From Candidatus Spongiihabitans sp. (GTDB lineage Bacteria > Pseudomonadota > Gammaproteobacteria > Arenicellales > Poriferihabitantaceae), in NCBI GenBank assembly GCA_965261425.1, contig OZ253452.1:673160-737159 (forward strand): a stretch of 64,000 bases of DNA. The letters are read 5' to 3'. Under the pieces are notes generated by a model, which saw only the letters and a list, made by a program, of their open reading frames with translations, did not search any database and was not told the origin of the DNA. Positions within the stretch are counted from its first letter, which is position 1, and each line of letters begins with the position of its first letter. The translations under genes were made by a program, and so were the position numbers. Positions 3,124-63,328 of this stretch are shown here, one piece after another.

Positions 3124-3191
3124 GCTGGAAACAAAAAAATGCTCGTTATCAATTAAGGGGTCATTAGCAGTGGGGTTGTCATTATTTTATT

Positions 3192-3253
3192 GGCTATATT
3201 ACTGGGTTCCCGCTTTCGCGGGAACGACAAATATTGGTTTTTTGCACAGTCTC
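3192..3253. repeat. Mosaic intergenic repeat (TTACTGGGTTCC-hairpin module plus reverse GAGACTGTGCAAAAA module)
   Basis: The same modules recur at 11377, 15026, 18005, 29368, 44734, 58951 and 63133. Confidence 0.85.
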
Positions 3254-3323
3254 TCATGTCGGTAAAATGTAATTAGGGCACCCACTGTATTCTTCATAGA
3301 CCCGATCCTTTTTATGTTTAGCG

Positions 3324-4937
3324 TTAGCGCGTAAAAACCAAGTCGGCGGGAATGGCAAAGCCGATGCCCTCTACATTCTCATCAACGAACTTAAAAGTCG
3401 TAATTCCGACCAAATTACCGTCGCTGTCAAACAAGCCGCCGCCAGATGAACCCGGGGATATGGCGGCATCGGTTTGCACAACCTGATAACCGTCTATTTT
3501 CCGCAGTTGCGAAACAAGCCCAGCGGACAAGGATAAATCTAACCCTTGCGGCGCGCCCAAACTATACACATTCTCGCCCACCCTGAGGGTCTCGTATTTT
3601 CGCATTGTTGCAGGAACACCCCATAAACCATCAACCTCCAACAAGCAAAAATCCTGCTCGGTATCGCTGTGGCGGATAACCGCCGTCAAGGGCGTTGTCG
3701 TATCGACTCGACGATTGTTGGCTTTATACACGCTAATATCGCCACCCTCATCCACCACATGGCAGTTGGTTGCCACCACATTAGGGCGCACAATCACACC
3801 GCTACCCTGGCTGTCGTTGTTCACAATCACAACCACCGACCGCCAGGATTTTTCAAAAACCTGCTCGGCAATATTGGTGCTTTTAGATGGCTCCGCCAAG
3901 GCAAAGTTGTGATCCAAGCCGGCGTTTGTAGCAGAATCTGCTTTGCCTTGTTCGATATCTTGCTCAATGGCTCGTAATCGCCGTGCCGCTTCACGGCGGG
4001 CTGATTTTATTTCTGCGGCATCCAGATGCCAGTTATTCTCACGCAAACTATTCGTCGCTAATTCATTGCCGTTTGCCTTGGCAATGGAAAACCAGATAAA
4101 TGCCTCACGCTCATCGGTAATAAATCCTTCACCATTCCAATACATCACGCCCAAATTATATTGTGCGCTCGCATCCCCCTGCTCTGCCGCCAGCCGATAC
4201 CAGCGTACTGCCTCACTAGCATCCTGAGTAACCCCTCTGCCATTAGCGTACATCAGGCCCAAATTAAATTGTGCATCCGCAACCCCCTGCTCTGCCGCCT
4301 TGCGATACCAGCGTACTGCCTCACTAGCATCCTGAGTAACCCCTTCGCCTTTCCTGTACATCCCGCCCAAATTATATTGTGCGCTCGCATCCCCCTGCTC
4401 TGCCGCCTTGCGAGTCCAGCGTACTGCCTCGCTATAATCCTGAATAACCCCTTCGCCATTAGCGTACATCAGGCCCAAACCATATTGCGCGTTCGCATAC
4501 CCCTGCTCTGCCGCCTTTTGATACCAGCGTACCGCTTCGCGCTCATCTTCGATAACCCCGTAGCCATTCCAATACGCAACGCCCAAATTATATTGTGCGC
4601 TCGCATCCCCCTGCTCTGCCGCTTTTTGATACCAGCGTACTGCCTCGCTAGCATCCTCAATAACCCCTTTGCCATTAGCGTACATCACGCCCAAATTATA
4701 TTGTGCCTCCGCATACCCCTGCTCTGCCGCCTTGCGAGTCCAGCGTACTGCCTCACTAGCATCCTGAGTAACTCCTATGCCTTCATGGTACATCACGCCC
4801 AAATTATATTGTGCATCCGCATCCCCCTGCTCTGCCGATTCGTATTGCGAACAGAAATATGTATTATCAGACGGGCATTCGGCATGGGCAGTGTTAAACA
4901 CCATAGCAATCAGCAGTATTAACAGACTTTTTTTCAT
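3324..4937 (-). CDS. Secreted Sel1-repeat protein fused to a trypsin-like (S1/HtrA-type) serine peptidase domain
   Basis: Signal peptide MKKSLLILLIAMVFNTAHA. Seven 36-aa Sel1 units (AEQGxxxAQYNLGxMYxxGxGVxQDxSEAVRWYRKA). The C-terminal domain carries the triad contexts TNCHVV, DFCLLEV and GSSGGGLF. Confidence 0.85.
   Translation of the reverse strand: MKKSLLILLIAMVFNTAHAECPSDNTYFCSQYESAEQGDADAQYNLGVMYHEGIGVTQDASEAVRWTRKAAEQGYAEAQYNLGVMYANGKGVIEDASEAVRWYQKAAEQGDASAQYNLGVAYWNGYGVIEDEREAVRWYQKAAEQGYANAQYGLGLMYANGEGVIQDYSEAVRWTRKAAEQGDASAQYNLGGMYRKGEGVTQDASEAVRWYRKAAEQGVADAQFNLGLMYANGRGVTQDASEAVRWYRLAAEQGDASAQYNLGVMYWNGEGFITDEREAFIWFSIAKANGNELATNSLRENNWHLDAAEIKSARREAARRLRAIEQDIEQGKADSATNAGLDHNFALAEPSKSTNIAEQVFEKSWRSVVVIVNNDSQGSGVIVRPNVVATNCHVVDEGGDISVYKANNRRVDTTTPLTAVIRHSDTEQDFCLLEVDGLWGVPATMRKYETLRVGENVYSLGAPQGLDLSLSAGLVSQLRKIDGYQVVQTDAAISPGSSGGGLFDSDGNLVGITTFKFVDENVEGIGFAIPADLVFTR
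4067..4840. repeat. Intragenic ~108-bp tandem DNA repeats encoding the Sel1 units
   Basis: Blocks such as gcccaaattatattgtgcgctcgcatccccctgctctgccgc recur at about 108/216-bp spacing with near identity. Confidence 0.85.
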
Positions 4938-5063: not shown

Positions 5064-5160
5064 AGTTAGATTTTGAAAAGAATATTTGACTGATTTCCTG
5101 CTTCCGTGTGGTGACTACCGAAAGTGTGGCTTTGGCCGCGCCACAAACAAGCCGGACTTA

Positions 5161-5255
5161 TGTACAGGATGTACGGGCAAATAATTGCTCCTGCATTATT
5201 TGCACTTCCGCCATCCATGGCGGTCGTATGCCGATTTTGCAGGAGCAAAAATCGG
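5161..5255 (+). mobile_element. Hairpin-module miniature element, 95-nt form (45-nt core plus 50-nt module B at 5177-5226)
   Basis: Identical to the 45-nt copy at 20855-20899 except for a 50-nt block inserted between GTACGG and TATGCC. TA lies on both sides (5159-5160 and 5256-5257). Confidence 0.8.
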
Positions 5256-5429
5256 TAAAGTCCCGCTTCCGAGATTATGCGAGAATCCAACATTCGTAGC
5301 TCCGTAGGAGCGGTATCTTTCTTTTGTGTCGCTCCTACGGAGCTTTGGCTGTCTCATTTATTTGTGCTACAAAGGTGTCATCCCTACGGGATTTTACTCA
5401 ATTCTTAATTTTCAATTATCAATTAAATC

Positions 5430-5517
5430 GAGACTGTGTAAAAATCCAATATTAGTCATTCCTAACCCCCCTTGCCCCCCTTATCAGGGGGGAATTGAGT
5501 GGAAAGTCCCTCTGATA
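5430..5517. repeat. GAGACTGTG module plus the intact arm of a long palindromic repeat (CCTTGCCCCCCTTATCAGGGGGG...)
   Basis: 5463-5517 is the reverse complement of the sequence flanking the IS110 left end at 6868-6890. It contains the uninterrupted IS110 target string. Confidence 0.75.
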
Positions 5518-5607: not shown

Positions 5608-6602
5608 CTATCTGCAAGCATAATTGACATCAAAAGGCTGTTCTGATTTTAATACCCCATAAGATATAACCAGTAGTTTCCGCATCACCGCGCACACTGC
5701 CACTTGTTTAGGTTTGCCTTTATCAAGTAGCCTATTGTATAAATTCTGCGTGACTGGATTGTGTCGCGTTGCCGTCAGTGCTGGCATATAGAGAGACTTT
5801 CTCAGGCGTTTGTGCCCTATTTTTGACAGACTACTCTTGTTGATACTACTGCCAGACTGGGTTATCTTCGGATTCAACCCAGCAAAACTGGCCACTTGCT
5901 TGGCGTTATCAAATGACGATATATCCCCCATATAGGCGAGGATAGCCCAAGCCGTTTTGTTGCCAATCCCGCCAATGCTGGTCAATAACCGTACTTGTTG
6001 ACGCAACACAGAATCGCCTACAACCAAGTCCTTGATTTCCTGTTCAACAATCACTATTTGCCGACAGATGTACCGAATCATCGCTTTGATTGATTTGCTG
6101 GCGGTCTTATTCAAACTCACTGGCAAACGATTCTTCTCTTGGGTTGATTGTTTGTTTAACTGCTCCAAGCGCGTCATCAGGCATTGTAACGCAACACTGG
6201 CTTCGCTTTTGGGCTTGAACAGATTTTTCTCTAACTCACCTTTGGCCACAATATGTTGACAATAACGCGCAATGCTGCCAGCACTTGTGCCCTGTGGGTA
6301 TCGGATTTATCCGTTTTATTACGCAACATTTCCATCTTGACAAACGCATGGGTTCTCATTGGGTTCGCCACAATCACCTGGTCGCCTGAGCGATGTAAAT
6401 AATACGCCAAAGCAACCCCATAAACGCTGGTGGCTTCCATACAAAACACCCGCTCTTGCGCTGCGTCCAATGATTTTAGCCATTTGGACAAGGCTTTGAA
6501 GCCTTTATGATCATTAGCAAAAGACGGGTTGTGGTCAACACCCTCAACGCACACAGCACCATCAAAACGTGCTTTAGATATATCAATACCGATACATAAC
6601 AT
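5608..6602 (-). pseudogene. IS110-family DEDD recombinase/transposase split by a 17-nt insertion
   Basis: The N-terminal ORF (MLCIGIDISKARFD...RNKTDKSD) and the C-terminal ORF (...LLTSIGGIGNKTAWAILAYMGD..FAGLNP, Transposase_20-like) are in different frames. Deleting 6283-6299 fuses them into about 325 codons. Confidence 0.9.
6283..6299. repeat. 17-nt cassette ACTTGTGCCCTGTGGGT (equivalently CTTGTGCCCTGTGGGTA at 6284-6300) inserted in the IS110 transposase gene
   Basis: It matches the tandem unit at 2596-2690 and the copies at 44113 and 44282. Removing it gives ...KTDKSD|AGSIARYCQ... in frame. Confidence 0.85.
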
Positions 6603-11179: not shown

Positions 11180-11376
11180 AGTGTTATTTTTAACTTAAAG
11201 AATAAGCTTTAATTATAGAAACTGAAAACAGACGGGATTATACCCGCCAAACCCAAAGCAGTGTTAAAAATACTGGAATCGGTCGATTCGTTCAATACTC
11301 TTAGTCGTTTTATTTATATAAATCAATGTGTTTAGATGTTTTTAATGGCTGACTAATTACGCATTACGAGTCGTTT

Positions 11377-11506
11377 GAGACTGTGCAAGAACCCAAATTC
11401 CGTCATTCCCGCGCAGGAGACTGTGCAAAAAACCAACATCCGTCATTCCTGCACCGACCCCGTCTTTCCTGCGAAAGCAGGAATCCAGTAAAATAGCCAA
11501 ACCTGC
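11377..11506. repeat. Mosaic intergenic repeat (two GAGACTGTGCAA modules plus CCTGCGAAAGCAGGAATCCAGTAAAATAGCC module)
   Basis: The modules are shared with 15026-15149, 58951-59074 and others. Confidence 0.85.
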
Positions 11507-11601
11507 ACTTCCGAAATTCCCCTGCCCCCGATAGATTAAGAAAGAACGATGTGTTATTGTTCTTATTAAATCTATCATCGTTTATGTGAGGAAAATTTAT
11601 A

Positions 11602-14978: not shown

Positions 14979-15025
14979 GACGATTGTTATCATACGAGAC
15001 ATTCCAGTGGTCGGGAAAGCCACCA

Positions 15026-15149
15026 GAGACCGTGCAAAAATCCAACATCCGTCTTTCCTGCACCGACCTCGTCTTTCCTGCGAAAGCAGGAATCCAGTAA
15101 AATACGCAAACCCGCAAGGGTTTTCGGTTTCAATTTTCAATTTTCAATT
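15026..15149. repeat. Mosaic intergenic repeat ending in a heptamer run (TTCAATT x3)
   Basis: Shared modules. It contains the hairpin AAACCCGCAAGGGTTT between the convergent malic-enzyme and iolE genes, which could act as a bidirectional terminator. Confidence 0.8.
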
Positions 15150-17960: not shown

Positions 17961-18071
17961 GATTGATAATTGATAATTGATAACTGTCCACTGACAACTA
18001 TCTTTTTTTACTGGATTCCTGCTTTCGCAGGAAAGACAGAGGTTCGGTTCTTGCACAATCTCAAACGACTC
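17961..18071. repeat. Heptamer repeat (ATTGATA x3, then ACTGTCC ACTGACA) followed by mosaic repeat modules
   Basis: Direct reading, followed by the shared TTACTGGATTCCTGCTTTCGCAGGAAAGAC module. Confidence 0.85.
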
Positions 18072-20687: not shown

Positions 20688-20854
20688 GCTCCACTAATTA
20701 ACGATTAAATAAATATTAAAATGTACATTTCGTATTTTAGCGCCTATCTGGCTTTTGTCAAACATCGGAATCAGAAAATACTTGAGCAAAGACTTTTGCA
20801 TCATTCTCGGGAGTGCGTAGCCGTGCAAAGTCCGTGCTAGAACGGCGGGACTTA

Positions 20855-20899
20855 TGTACAGGATGTACGGTATGCCGATTTTGCAAGAGCAAAAATCGG
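20855..20899 (+). mobile_element. Hairpin-module miniature element, minimal 45-nt form
   Basis: TGTACAGGATGTACGGTATGCCGATTTTGCAAGAGCAAAAATCGG, flanked by TA on both sides and by GGGACTTA...TAAAGTCCC. It corresponds to the core of 5161-5255. Confidence 0.75.
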
Positions 20900-29367: not shown

Positions 29368-29485
29368 GATACTGTGTCAAATCTTTATGGGCAACCCTTG
29401 CGGGTTTGGCTATTTTACTGGATTCCTGCTTTCGAGACTGTGCAAAAAACCAATATTCGGCATTCCTAACCCCCCTTGCCCCCCT
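29368..29485. repeat. Mosaic intergenic repeat ending in the IS110 target string CCTTGCCCCCCT
   Basis: GATACTGTG.., CAACCCTTGCGGGTTTGGCTATTTTACTGGATTCCTGC, GAGACTGTGCAAAAAACCAATATTCGGCATTCCTAACCCCCCTTGCCCCCCT. The stem-loop followed by a T-run after iolB may terminate transcription. Confidence 0.8.
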
Positions 29486-29909
29486 CGTATGATCCCAATC
29501 GGGTAAATTATCAACTCGTTTAGTGGTTTTTAATGGACCCTATCCAACGGCGGTTGGATGGGTAGTCGTGATGCAGTAGCCCCCAGTAAGTTTTTAAACT
29601 TGTTGATAAGGTATCGCACCTACTACCCGCTTTACCGGTTTTTGCTCCTCGACAATTGCTCCTGCATTGTTCTAATAAGTTACATCCATGTAACGATACA
29701 AAACCGGCATACGACCGCCATGGATGGCGGAAGTGCAAATAATGCAGGAGCAATTATTTGCCCGTACATCCTTGTACATTAACATCATCAAGTGCGGACA
29801 GTATCTGGTGCAAGACCAAAAATCTGAGCACGAATAGTACGAGGATGCACCGAAGTTAAATGATCCAACCTATCTACAATTATAACCGGAGAATGTGATG
29901 TTATGTATC
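29486..29909 (+). mobile_element. Second IS110-family copy: left end plus the first 4 codons only (truncated)
   Basis: Apart from the 145-nt insertion it is nearly identical (a handful of mismatches) to the reverse complement of 6591-6867, including ATG TTA TGT ATC (MLCI). Homology stops at 29909. Confidence 0.9.
29635..29779 (-). mobile_element. Hairpin-module miniature element, 145-nt form (core plus modules B and C) inside the IS110 left end
   Basis: It is absent from the otherwise near-identical copy at 6603-6867. The filled site reads CCCGCTT-TA-[145 nt]-TA-ACATCATC and the empty site reads CCCGCTT-TA-ACTTCATC. Confidence 0.9.
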
Positions 29910-42897: not shown

Positions 42898-43605
42898 TAC
42901 GCACTCCAATTGTTTAGGTTAAATTATATTTCACTTGATGATATTTATTTCACAAGCGGATTGTAGTTTAGGAGGCAAGTTGAGTCAAGCCCTTTTTCAA
43001 GAATGTTAGCCCAAAGCAGTAATGTCCCCTTTTGACTTCTTCAGGAGCGGTGCGGCGGGCTCACCGAGCGAGGGTTATGACAGAGGAGATAATTACATTG
43101 AGCCATGCAGATGAGCTGGGCAGAACTTGACCGAGTATCGGTTATTCATTCCATTATCGGGTGCCGGCGAGACCAGCACAGGCGGCGCGGCAACTACACT
43201 TAGGTCTCCGGCAGGTAAAACGCTTAACCCACGCTTATCGAGACTGTGGTGCGGCTGGACTTGCCTCCAAGCGGCGTGGGTGCCCGGCAACGCCATTGGT
43301 GATGAGTTGCGCCAACAGGCACTCGCCATCATCAAGACGCACTATGGTGATTTTGGGCCGACTTTCGCGCACGAGAAGCTCACCGAACTGCATGAGTGCC
43401 ATTTCTCGGTGGAGACATTACGAAAGTGGATGATTAAAGATGGGTTGTGGTTGGGGAAACAGCGTAAAAGAGTAGCCATCCACCAAAGCCGGTCTCGGCT
43501 GGGCGAGCTGGTACAGATTGATGGATCACCGCATGATTGGTTTGAGGGGCGCGCACCTAATTGCACTTTAATTGTCTTTATCGATGATGCGACCAGTCGG
43601 CTATA

Positions 43606-43748
43606 TGTACAGGATGTACGGGCAGATAGCTGCTCCTGCATTATCTGCACTTCCGTCTTCCATGACGGTCGTATGCCGGTTTTGCATCGCTACATGGATG
43701 TAACTTAGTAGGGCAATGCAGGAGCAATTGCCGAGAAGCAAAAACCGG
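43606..43748 (+). mobile_element. Hairpin-module miniature element, 143-nt form (core plus diverged modules B and C) inside the transposase ORF
   Basis: It has the same module order as 29635-29779. Removing exactly 43606-43748 rejoins …DDATSRLY|LALHFAPTETT… in frame. Confidence 0.85.
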
Positions 43749-44112
43749 CCTGGCTTTGCATTTTGCGCCCACAGAGACCACTCAATCGTATATGGAAACC
43801 CTCCATCAGAAACTTGAACAGCATGGCCGCACAGTCGCTATTTACAGCGATAAGCACAGTATCTTTCGGGTCAATCATCCCCAAAATAAAGAAATAGCAC
43901 GAGGGCGAATTAACCCAATTTACCCGCGCACTCAAAACCCTAGATATTGAGCCTATTCACACCAATACCACGCAGGACAAAGGGCGGGTAGAACGTGCCA
44001 ATAAAACGCTGCAAGACCGACCGGTTGTCGATCCGCGCTTACAGGGTATCAACTCTATTGAGCAAGCAGATGCCTTTTTGCCACAGTTTATTGACGACTA
44101 CAACCAGCGTTT

Positions 44113-44129
44113 TACCCGCAGGGCACAAG
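44113..44129 (-). repeat. 17-nt cassette (TACCCGCAGGGCACAAG, the reverse complement of CTTGTGCCCTGCGGGTA) inserted in the ISNCY-like ORF
   Basis: The upstream frame (…FIDDYNQRF) and the downstream frame (AVTAQHTDNAHRALL…) differ by exactly this 17-nt block. Confidence 0.8.
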
Positions 44130-44281
44130 TGCCGTTACCGCGCAACACACCGACAATGCACATCGTGCGCTATTGCACAGCGTCGAGGAGCTTAAACTGA
44201 TCCTCTGCCGGCACCATCAGCGTAAACTGTCTAAGAATTTAACCTTATCATTTTGTAACACCGAATATCAGCTGACTGGCT

Positions 44282-44298
44282 CTTGTGCCCTGCGGGTA
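44282..44298 (+). repeat. 17-nt cassette CTTGTGCCCTGCGGGTA inserted in the ISNCY-like ORF (opposite orientation to 44113)
   Basis: After …NTEYQLTG the frame breaks. Removing the block gives …LTG-YGKGYRLMR…. A separate 1-nt indel near 44325 then leads into ATITLCEDG…. Confidence 0.7.
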
Positions 44299-44733
44299 AC
44301 GGCAAGGGCTATCGTCTGATGAGGAGCGACCATCACGCTCTGCGAAGACGGTGCTACGGGTTTGGTTACATTGCTATACAAAGGCAAGGCATTGACTTAT
44401 CGAACGCTCCAAAAGGGAAAGGCCGCCGTTGTGATTGCCGATGATAAGACCGTTCATAACCACGTTGAGCCAAGCACTTCACCGACAACAAAAATTCACT
44501 TAGAAACCCGCACCAGATCATCCATGGCGGAGACCATTAACCCGTTATTCAACCAATACTGCCCCATAATGAATATAAAAAGGGGACATTACTGCTTTGG
44601 GTTGACACTATTTTGAAGTTGAAAATTACGACCCTTGTTTATGGTAAATCTGTTTTATTCTCCGTGTCCTCTGTGCCCTCGGTGTCGCATCTTTTAGAAA
44701 ATCTTGTTCATCCTGTTCATCCATGTAAATAGT

Positions 44734-44782
44734 GGAAAACCCTTGCGGGTTTGTTTGTTTTACTGGATTCCTGCTCCCCGCC
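44734..44782. repeat. Mosaic repeat module (GGAAAACCCTTGCGGGTTTG…TTTTACTGGATTCCTGC)
   Basis: The module is shared with 29391, 63175 and, in reverse, 15100 and 59055. Confidence 0.8.
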
Positions 44783-58950: not shown

Positions 58951-59074
58951 ACCCGTCTTCCCCGCGTAGGAGACTGTGCAAAAAACCAACATCCGTCATT
59001 CCTGCGAAGCCTGTCCCCGCGCAGGCGGGGAGCAGGAATCCAGTGAAACACACAAACCCGCAAGGGTTTTCCGC
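58951..59074. repeat. Mosaic intergenic repeat (GAGACTGTGCAAAAAACCAACATCCGTCATTCCTGC, GC hairpin, GGAATCCAGTGAAAC…AAACCCGCAAGGGTTTTC)
   Basis: Modules shared with the other mosaic repeats. Located between the divergent argS and fbpA genes. Confidence 0.85.
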
Positions 59075-63132: not shown

Positions 63133-63328
63133 GCGACTGTGCAAGAAACCCACGCTAAGCATGTGTTACATGCGGAAAACCCTTGCGGGTTTGGCTATTT
63201 TACTGGGTTCCTGCTTTCGCAGGAATGACGCATATTGGATTTTTGCACAGTCTCTTCCGCAGGAATGACGGACTAGGTTGCTTCTCAATTATCAATTATC
63301 AATTTTCCATTTTCAATTTTCAATTTCC
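63133..63328. repeat. Mosaic intergenic repeat plus heptamer runs (CAATTAT x2, TTTCAAT variants)
   Basis: GCGACTGTGCAAGAAACCC…GGAAAACCCTTGCGGGTTTGGCTATTTTACTGGGTTCCTGCTTTCGCAGGAATGACG…TTTTTGCACAGTCTC…, followed by ctcaattatcaattatcaattttccattttcaattttcaatttcc. The hairpin and T-run just after fbpC could terminate transcription. Confidence 0.85.

Follow-up and report, generated by a model that had tools for sequence, protein, structure and literature searches.

A composite hairpin element with covarying stems in a degenerate ISNCY transposase gene of Candidatus Spongiihabitans sp., and the family of modular hairpin repeats to which it belongs

Small palindromic repeats are usually regarded as species-specific genomic clutter. 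The described systems closest to the element analysed here are the repetitive extragenic palindromic (REP) sequences, bacterial interspersed mosaic elements (BIME) and REPIN-RAYT systems (for REPINs and single-strand HUH transposition, see PMC3337134 and PMC6006769). The element, called copy D, is a composite of nested hairpins (H1 to H4, with M5 and M6 inside H4) located in a degenerate insertion sequence (IS) of the ISNCY family, within a stretch of 64,000 nucleotides of Candidatus Spongiihabitans sp. (contig OZ253452.1, positions 673,160 to 737,159 of the forward strand), which is the window referred to throughout. The element is best regarded as a further kind of REP/BIME-like mobile palindromic repeat. 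Like REP, BIME and REPIN sequences, it consists of short (20–40 nt) imperfect palindromes, present in many copies that are mostly extragenic and near the 3′ ends of genes; it forms mosaics and inverted pairs (H2-H3 versus M5-M6), its stems covary between lineages, and neither terminal inverted repeats nor target duplications are seen. Modules of the M6 type have (TAG)TAG directly 5′ of the stem, which may be comparable to the GTAG-type foot of REP sequences (34 regular-expression matches, a few of them due to chance), while H4-type modules have GTAT instead and H2 has neither. The differences from REP are that no RAYT was found near the copies, that the loops and H1 are shared across orders and are not species-specific, that units nest recursively in each other's loops, that all hairpin types carry a CsrA consensus, and that arrays begin exactly at a terminator T-tract with one polarity. 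What is unusual in this case is the conservation of loops and lead hairpin across orders, the recursive nesting, the targeting of terminators to the single base and in one polarity, and a textbook covariation of the stems.

Other known systems share part of these traits. The non-autonomous derivatives of IS200/IS605 (palindrome-associated elements) also carry a hairpin at each end, lack terminal inverted repeats and cause no target duplication, and their insertion is polar, with the left end placed 3′ of a short target (here a T or T-run) and a single strand as the likely substrate. They differ from the present family in that neither a TnpA nor a TnpB with corresponding ends was found for the latter, the hairpins of the one IS200-type element encountered (locus L120) being unrelated, and in that a T-rich tail after a hairpin stands here in place of a fixed tetra- or pentanucleotide. 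The Csr/Rsm sponge RNAs (CsrB, CsrC, RsmX/Y/Z) contain many short hairpins with GGA loops, and the H1 core CAGGAUG and the loop CANGGANG of the family match the published CsrA/RsmE consensus; the modules studied here differ in being dispersed, multicopy, mobile, present in both orientations and sometimes inside genes, with no Rfam match and no dedicated promoter or terminator seen. Intergenic repeats that are likewise small, modular and structure-forming, and able to influence the transcripts next to them, are the BOX elements of Streptococcus pneumoniae and the Correia/NEMIS elements of Neisseria. Neither is related in sequence to the hairpin family; BOX modules are not nested in hairpin loops, and Correia elements carry terminal inverted repeats together with a TA duplication. 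Bacterial class C group II introns prefer sites just downstream of intrinsic terminator stem-loops, and this preference is shared by the hairpin family; such introns are catalytic, measure about 2 kb and encode a reverse transcriptase, and no such features occur here.

The initial annotation of the locus had proposed, from three paired stem changes, that the hairpins are under selection or needed for propagation instead of simply decaying, a view that depends on whether substitutions in stems are paired beyond chance in a larger set of copies. Covariation was evaluated in covariance-model alignments of copies from many genomes and genera, the source genome being represented by the window: 43 copies were used for H1-H2-H3 and 35 for M5-M6. 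In the H1-H2-H3 model, 92.0% of the cells were paired versus 73.6% in shuffled alignments, with none of 500 shuffles reaching the observed value, and 141 cells were double-sided changes versus 41 in shuffles; slid controls gave 30–45% paired cells with this model, and 18–45% over both models. In the M5-M6 model, 92.1% of the cells were paired versus 72.6% when shuffled, with 62 double-sided cells versus 13.6. The double-sided changes were thus 3–5-fold above shuffles across the two alignments. A structure-blind MAFFT alignment gave 91% paired cells versus 80% shuffled and 26 double-sided changes versus 7.8, and RNAalifold recovered independently the same three hairpins H1, H2 and H3. The pairs named in the initial annotation alternate between A-T and G-C across the family (e.g., AU 16, GC 13, unpaired 2). 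The outcome is strongly positive (92% paired versus 73–74% shuffled), and it upholds the claim of constraint, with caveats, weighed below, as to selection versus mutation. Loop columns show an entropy near zero, while stem columns reach 1.0–1.8 bits; the hairpins can thus be taken as constrained rather than decaying, as the stems covary while the loops stay nearly invariant. G.T and A.C mispairs are about equally common (18 versus 24), so neither RNA versus DNA nor the folding strand can be deduced from them.

Copy D itself agrees with this picture. Compared to copy C of the window, it shows 14 substitutions and one indel, as expected from its earlier description as a diverged copy, and the three compensatory stem pairs proposed for it were all found at the stems indicated: 43625/43645 (A-T to G-C), 43656/43665 (C-G to T-A) and 43713/43731 (A-T to G-C). 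At 43685 and 43712, a wobble or mismatch was turned into a Watson–Crick pair, while one G.T wobble (43629) and three mismatches (43630, 43658 and 43690) were made. When 14 substitutions were placed at random 200,000 times, three or more compensated pairs appeared in 0.1% of the placements (P~0.001). The 148-nt stretch folds with −32.4 kcal/mol as DNA (z −4.9) and −54.5 kcal/mol as RNA (z −3.3), beating every shuffle in both cases. The three mismatches and the wobble present in copy D are a caveat on the pairing constraint. It is very probable that copy D is a mobile, modular element with pairing-constrained stems.

Concerning the insertion site, the nested-hairpin block spans 43603–43750 inside the degenerate IS. 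When it is removed, the rejoined protein matches NCBIfam NF033594 (ISNCY family) with 252.7 bits, the cut-off being 250, and the site falls between the first and second catalytic Asp of the transposase, in accordance with its original placement inside the DDE domain of an ISNCY-like gene. An uninterrupted copy of the IS from the same genome, P0077, is 96% identical and reads ...FIDDATSRLLALHFAPTETTQSYMETL... (DDATSRLLALHF across the site); it is encoded, together with the EF-Ts of the window (P0131, 100% identity), on one contig of 2,917,534 bp. P0077 and all relatives read DDATSRL|LALHF, without Tyr: in P0001, P0003, P0126 and P0129, as in P0077, SRL is followed directly by L-A/S-L, and eight more distant ISNCY-like genes continue past DDATSRL without interruption. 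A precise, frame-restoring insertion of 143 nt (43606–43748) had been described. The element is indeed present and its removal does rejoin SRLY|LALHF in frame, but the true length is 146 nt, since neither P0077 nor any relative has the extra Tyr. This residue is an artefact of the 143-nt removal, explained because both 143 and 146 are 2 mod 3; for the same reason, the insertion of 146 nt broke the host reading frame. Unlike the Rickettsia-type in-frame palindromic elements, the length of copy D is no multiple of three and the host protein is not intact.

The boundary of copy D is uncertain by one base, the third base of the Leu codon being ambiguous, and the empty site was judged from empty-site proteins; a 31-base empty-site pattern found no match in metagenomes, and a 20-base IS pattern matched only distant ISNCY genes. 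Comparing the flanks of D with the empty-site proteins, no target duplication or flanking direct repeat was observed. Terminal inverted repeats are absent from copies D and C, and D shows neither a promoter-like nor a terminator-like site of its own. The best explanation, favoured with some reserve, is that the composite entered the ISNCY transposase gene as a single piece, with its H1 end joined after a T and without target duplication.

The coordinates of the element, its hairpins, its other copies and the pairs discussed below are summarized in Table 1. Two hairpin types can be distinguished, P with loop CATGGATG (CA-N-GGA-N-G) and Q with loop GCAGGAGC, H1 being a variant of the P hairpin. 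The basic unit, of about 50 nt, is a P hairpin plus a Q hairpin. Units nest in either orientation at two places: one separates P from Q (ACGG^TATG), the other is within the Q loop (GCA^GGAGC). So, copy B is one unit, copy A adds a second, reversed unit at ACGG^TATG, and copies C and D have three units, with the third inside the Q loop at GCA^GGAGC. The H4 loop of the short copies A and B is merely AGGA or AAGA. The pair H2-H3 is the inverted counterpart of M5-M6, and the loops of H2 and M6 are mutually complementary over 12 nt in D and 15 nt in C. In copy D, H2 continues beyond its seven Watson–Crick pairs with G.T (43629/43641) and then C.A (43630/43640). Nested reverse units were also found in other genomes (loci L010, L024 and L100). 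Copy A is, like copy C, antisense to neighbouring genes.

Table 1. Positions of copy D, its host IS and component hairpins, the other copies in the window, base pairs compared among copies, and related units in Sedimenticola (window coordinates unless a locus is given).
Feature	Position	Strand	Remarks
Degenerate ISNCY-family IS hosting copy D	43010..44601	+	Several frameshifts in the gene
Terminal inverted repeats of the host IS	43010-43033 and 44578-44601		CCCAAAGCAGTAATGTCCCCTTTT
Copy D, 146-nt composite hairpin element in the ISNCY transposase gene	43604..43749	+	±1; alternatively 43603-43748
H1 hairpin	43607..43619	+	GTACA-GGA-TGTAC; 5-bp stem, GGA loop; resembles the CsrA SELEX ligand RUACARGGAUGU
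H2 hairpin	43622..43648	+	Reverse-orientation Q-type; loop TGCTCCTGC; 7 Watson–Crick pairs; compensated pair 43625/43645
H3 hairpin	43653..43668	+	Reverse-orientation P-type (complement of CANGGANG); compensated pair 43656/43665; T.T mismatch 43658/43663
H4 hairpin	43676..43748	+	Q-type; outer stem CCGGTTTTGC/GCAAAAACCGG, 43676-43685 with 43738-43748, around nested M5-M6 unit
M5 hairpin	43689..43704	+	P-type; GCTACAT-GG-ATGTAAC; loop core CAUGGAUG; C.A mismatch 43690/43703
GTAG (43708-43711) plus M6 hairpin	43708..43732	+	Q-type, REP-like; GGCAAT-GCAGGAGCA-ATTGCC; compensated pair 43713/43731
Copy A	5159-5255	+	H1, H2, H3, H4 without nested M5-M6 unit
Copy B	20853-20899	+	Basic unit alone (H1 + H4); about 100 nt upstream of aroC, same strand
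Copy C	29635-29779	-	Full length, three-unit architecture as in D; intergenic, antisense to both neighbouring genes
H3 pair	43656/43665		C-G in C (and A); T-A in D; C-G in L121/P0039
M5 pair	43690/43703		T-A in C; C.A in D; C-G in L121/P0039
H2 tip pair	43630/43640		T-A in C; C.A in D; C-G in L121/P0039
Sedimenticola unit, L018	~3230-3285	-	
Sedimenticola unit, L081	1667-1720		

That the units move on their own, and the composites as blocks, is indicated by this nesting together with a polymorphism among copies of a miniature inverted-repeat transposable element (MITE). This MITE, of about 230 nt and with terminal inverted repeats AGGGCGCCTCTAAAAAT..., occurs in L005, L009 (two copies), L013, L109 and L117, and its GGA-rich interior holds an H1+Q unit. 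One of the two copies in L009, both from one metagenome-assembled genome, contains an additional 48-nt P+Q unit, and a similar one occupies the same MITE site in L117, while the other MITE copies lack it, at GCGCG^GAGAACC. As a separate observation, an outer inverted repeat GGGACTT...TAAAGTCCC(G/A)CTTCC, with core GGGACTT...AAGTCCC, flanks copies A (5150–5159/5256–5270) and B (20845–20853/20900–20914); it was not found at C or D, elsewhere in the window, or in other genomes.

The distribution of the family was studied by scanning for the H1 17-mer in one genome per species, which gave at least 119 loci. Around 14 of the 119 listed, in which the 17-mer matched by chance or in coding sequence, were left out of the statistics; the remaining ones all carry P/Q modules. 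The hosts include Nitrincola, Marinobacterium, Amphritea, Motiliproteus, Colwellia, Rheinheimera, Halioglobus, Sedimenticola, Solemya symbionts, Thiotrichaceae and a few Bdellovibrionales. The family is present in dozens of gammaproteobacterial genera, marine ones included, and the 17-mer and the loops are common to Oceanospirillales, Alteromonadales, Chromatiales, Cellvibrionales and Bdellovibrionales. Chromids of Pseudoalteromonas carry it as well. One viral contig (L135, IMGVR_UViG_3300017698_000063) has at 575–640 one H1+P/Q unit directly after a terminator, and is a possible vehicle for spread between lineages; four of the five viral-contig matches were due to chance. No paper matching the element sequences was found in the literature, nor one linking CsrA with REP or MITE elements, and searches against Rfam gave no family match in the window, the D region and 18 array loci, apart from one tRNA and sub-threshold miRNA-like noise. 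So, the family of modular hairpin repeats is apparently undescribed.

As to placement, besides the four copies in the 64 kb of the window, arrays were seen in about 100 loci, mostly extragenic, copy D being inside a dead gene. Arrays contain up to 13 modules of one polarity, co-directional with the upstream gene (L069). An in-frame tandem open reading frame (ORF; MYRMYGMP...) was ruled out as an explanation of the arrays, as their periods vary between 50, 51 and 52 nt. The base preceding the array-initial H1 hairpin (position −1) is T in 93 of 105 cases, and a run of at least four T directly abuts 56 of the 105 array starts, versus 3% of random positions. These T-runs are nearly always the tail of a GC-rich intrinsic terminator hairpin; a terminator-like hairpin was recognized upstream of 34 of 83 arrays, while a downstream terminator-like site appeared in 8 of 83 on the same strand and in 4 of 83 on the opposite one. 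Nothing comparable to the T-run occurs at the 3′ end of the arrays, and no fixed target word of 4–5 nt is evident. This polar and exact association with terminators indicates target choice rather than mere tolerance. There is also recurrent insertion into transposase genes, an ISNCY one in the window and an IS91-like one in Sedimenticola.

Of the mechanisms that could account for these results, a non-autonomous REP/BIME-like mobile element acting through folded single strands is the one preferred, by a narrow judgement. The movement would proceed via a folded single strand recognized by an enzyme acting in trans, the candidate being a Y1/HUH transposase (RAYT- or IS200-like) encoded elsewhere in the genome. 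This enzyme would read the conserved loops, while the stems would need only to pair; covarying stems, fixed loops and polar arrays after the terminator T-tract would follow from such loop reading. The participation of an HUH-type single-strand mechanism is proposed more tentatively, because of the absence of duplication, the unlike ends, the polar joining after a T-rich target and the hairpin ends. If a transposase reads the loops, the family would represent a compact system for structure-guided single-strand transposition with safe-haven targeting.

Several observations weigh against this preferred explanation. None of the four copies of the window abuts a terminator. No Y1/HUH gene was detected in the window or near the approximately 100 arrays (about 0.9 Mb), in a crude search with a RAYT motif regular expression and IS200 TnpA tblastn that covered the window and 121 loci. 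The only Y1 gene seen (L120, 11578–12006) encodes a 142-aa TnpA, in a complete IS200-type element (L120, 11480–12070) that directly adjoins the right end of an ISNCY copy; it was rejected as the source of the mobiliser, its end hairpins CCGTCTAAAGACGG being unrelated to those of the family. In addition, REP families are normally species-specific, while the loops and H1 are here conserved across orders; the three hairpin types share a CsrA consensus, which recognition by a transposase does not predict; and stem-preserving changes are found among copies that travel as passengers of the IS (D and L120 versus L121 and P0039).

The passenger copies deserve to be considered apart. The same degenerate IS occurs elsewhere with the insert at the same site (L120, L121 and P0039), from which it follows that IS and hairpin passenger were copied together after the insertion. 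L121 was considered as an ortholog of the window locus, and this was ruled out as blastn matches it only within the IS; it is another IS copy. D seems to be intermediate at the M5 pair and at the H2 tip (Table 1). Between D and L121 the element differs at 7 of 111 positions and the IS flank at 12 of 600 (P=0.019). The L120 copy shows small deletions, but its contig has a coverage of only 3x. In two metagenome-assembled genomes of Sedimenticola, a 53-nt H1+Q unit interrupts an IS91-like gene; the unit is identical at 49 of 51 positions, the flanks at 78%, both differences are the two sides of one pair, and the downstream ORF is open in both genomes. A filter at the stage of propagation cannot act on passengers, which leaves local selection, correction by template switching, conversion, or repeated site-specific insertion as causes of their paired changes. 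In this sense, the IS-borne copies provide a natural test of whether selection is required at all for paired substitutions in DNA hairpins. Two side observations concern the same copies. In L121 (10479–10947), the IS ends inside M6, right after GTAGGGC, and the DNA that follows is unrelated and has an orn-like gene; a rearrangement breakpoint thus lies in the hairpin element. A 9-nt indel (window 43487; L120 10365–10373; SRPRRSRL versus SRSRL) sets L120 and P0077 apart from D, L121 and P0039, in conflict with the hairpin insert, which is present in D, L120, L121 and P0039 but not in P0077; this suggests recombination between IS copies, recurrent indel, or precise excision of the element.

The alternatives to a mobile element with constrained stems differ much in how well they stand up. 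A chance palindrome-rich stretch, or an unconstrained decaying remnant, would agree with the three mismatches and wobble of D and with the small deletions of L120, but is refuted by the fold z-scores, the simulation of compensated pairs, and the family-wide covariation never reached by shuffles. An ordinary MITE derived from a DDE-type IS, moved by cut-and-paste via terminal inverted repeats, would explain a short, repeated, non-coding element in an IS-rich genome, and the outer inverted repeat of copies A and B is of the expected kind; this origin is nevertheless highly improbable, considering that C and D lack terminal inverted repeats, that D has no target duplication, that the ends are unlike (H1 versus a Q hairpin) and the insertion polar, and that neither C and D nor other genomes show the outer repeat. 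More difficult to dismiss, although judged rather unlikely, is that the paired changes are a mutational by-product of quasipalindrome template switching during replication, or of conversion from other copies, with no selection involved. Such template switching is established in E. coli (PMC7202029). In its favour, paired changes of stems are seen even among IS passengers (H3 has C-G in L121, T-A in D), and the M5 and H2-tip pairs run from T-A in C through C.A in D to C-G in L121 and P0039. All the paired changes of IS copies are transitions, the element diverges more than its IS flank, the G.T/A.C symmetry fits a process on double-stranded DNA palindromes, and the conflicting characters of the IS copies suggest recombination between them. 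On the other hand, template switching is unable to explain the cross-order conservation of loops and spacers beside variable stems, the polar placement at terminators, or a Sedimenticola unit so much more conserved than its flanks, and mismatched intermediates persist in D and L120.

A different alternative, which is possible though doubtful and does not exclude DNA mobility, is that the modules are CsrA/Rsm-binding hairpins at the RNA level, so that read-through or host transcripts would bind or titrate CsrA, and selection for binding would keep both the GGA loops and the paired stems. H1 reads GUACA(R)GGAUGUAC; the SELEX (systematic evolution of ligands by exponential enrichment) ligand RUACARGGAUGU is matched 12/12 in copy C and several loci, and the common form of H1 at 11 of 12 positions, with only R missing and GGA in the hairpin loop. 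The P loop corresponds to the RsmE/CsrA consensus (A/U)CANGGANG(U/A), and its entropy is about zero at C, A, G, G, A and G and 1.1–1.6 bits at the two N positions (consensus sequences as quoted in PMC4347634 and PMC6849547). Among 344 perfect hairpins of 98 arrays, the loop on the H1 strand contains GGA in 235 and TCC in 39, and arrays reach 13 GGA hairpins of single polarity, co-directional with the upstream gene. The conservation of the loops across orders would also fit a conserved host protein better than fast-evolving transposases. Against all this, the Rfam models of CsrB, CsrC and RsmX/Y/Z gave no match at the gathering threshold or with E up to 5–10, and TwoAYGGAY (RF01731) none with E up to 10 in D and up to 5 in the L069 array, even though the P loops read AUGGAU. 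Arrays begin after a terminator, and just 8 of 83 have a downstream terminator-like site of their own; no promoter-like site occurs at D, GacA/UvrY boxes not having been searched for. About one quarter of the non-H1 modules are reversed and have UCC loops, including H2 and H3 of D, G.U is not in excess over A.C mispairs, window copies A and C are antisense to neighbouring genes, and no paper linking CsrA to dispersed repeats was found. The absence of csrA from the window and the loci is uninformative.

Judging from the loops, the binding of CsrA by transcripts of the element is a live and novel possibility. Joining it to mobility, one could conceive of mobile hairpin modules with predicted high-affinity CsrA/RsmE loops that spread through Gammaproteobacteria and seed sites downstream of terminators and occasionally in genes, an idea judged rather unlikely; the stems would then covary because CsrA reads only the loop that a stem presents. 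If true, a transposable element would write part of the CsrA regulon or of its titration capacity, and a mobile element distributing sites for a global post-transcriptional regulator has not been described before.

Other repeats were noticed in and around the window. A 17-nt unit, CTTGTGCCCTG(C/T)GGGTA, is found at 6284–6300 (+), 44113–44129 (−) and 44282–44298 (+), inserted singly and precisely in two different transposase genes, and also as a head-to-tail array of 5–6 units upstream of uvrB (2596–2691). Its removal fuses IS110-family ORFs into one of about 325 aa, and restores ...DDYNQRFAVTAQH... and ...QLTGYGKGYRL... in the ISNCY gene. Both ISNCY insertions are also present in the IS copy of L120, and one copy of the unit occurs in L038; its length is 2 mod 3, as with the 146-nt and 53-nt insertions. 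A GGA-rich stretch, ACATGGACATGGATGGACAGGAAT, adjoins the 17-nt array at 2540–2562, just upstream of the uvrB start. Other small repeat families (ACTGGATTCCTGCTTTCGCAGGAATGAC..., GAGACTGTGCAAAAA...CCGTCATTCCTGC and AACCCTTGCGGGTTT) are present in this genome, where dispersed short repeats are unusually abundant; sites are at 3177–3254, 5413–5465, 11360–11516, 15009–15125, 17986–18063, 29393–29469, 44738–44779, 58953–59071 and 63178–63255. Finally, a tandem repeat at 3983–4930, with seven copies of a 108-nt period in the ORF 3324–4937, is a coding repeat and not a DNA element, as it codes for repeats of the Sel1-like type (AEQG...AQYNLG) joined to a trypsin-like domain.

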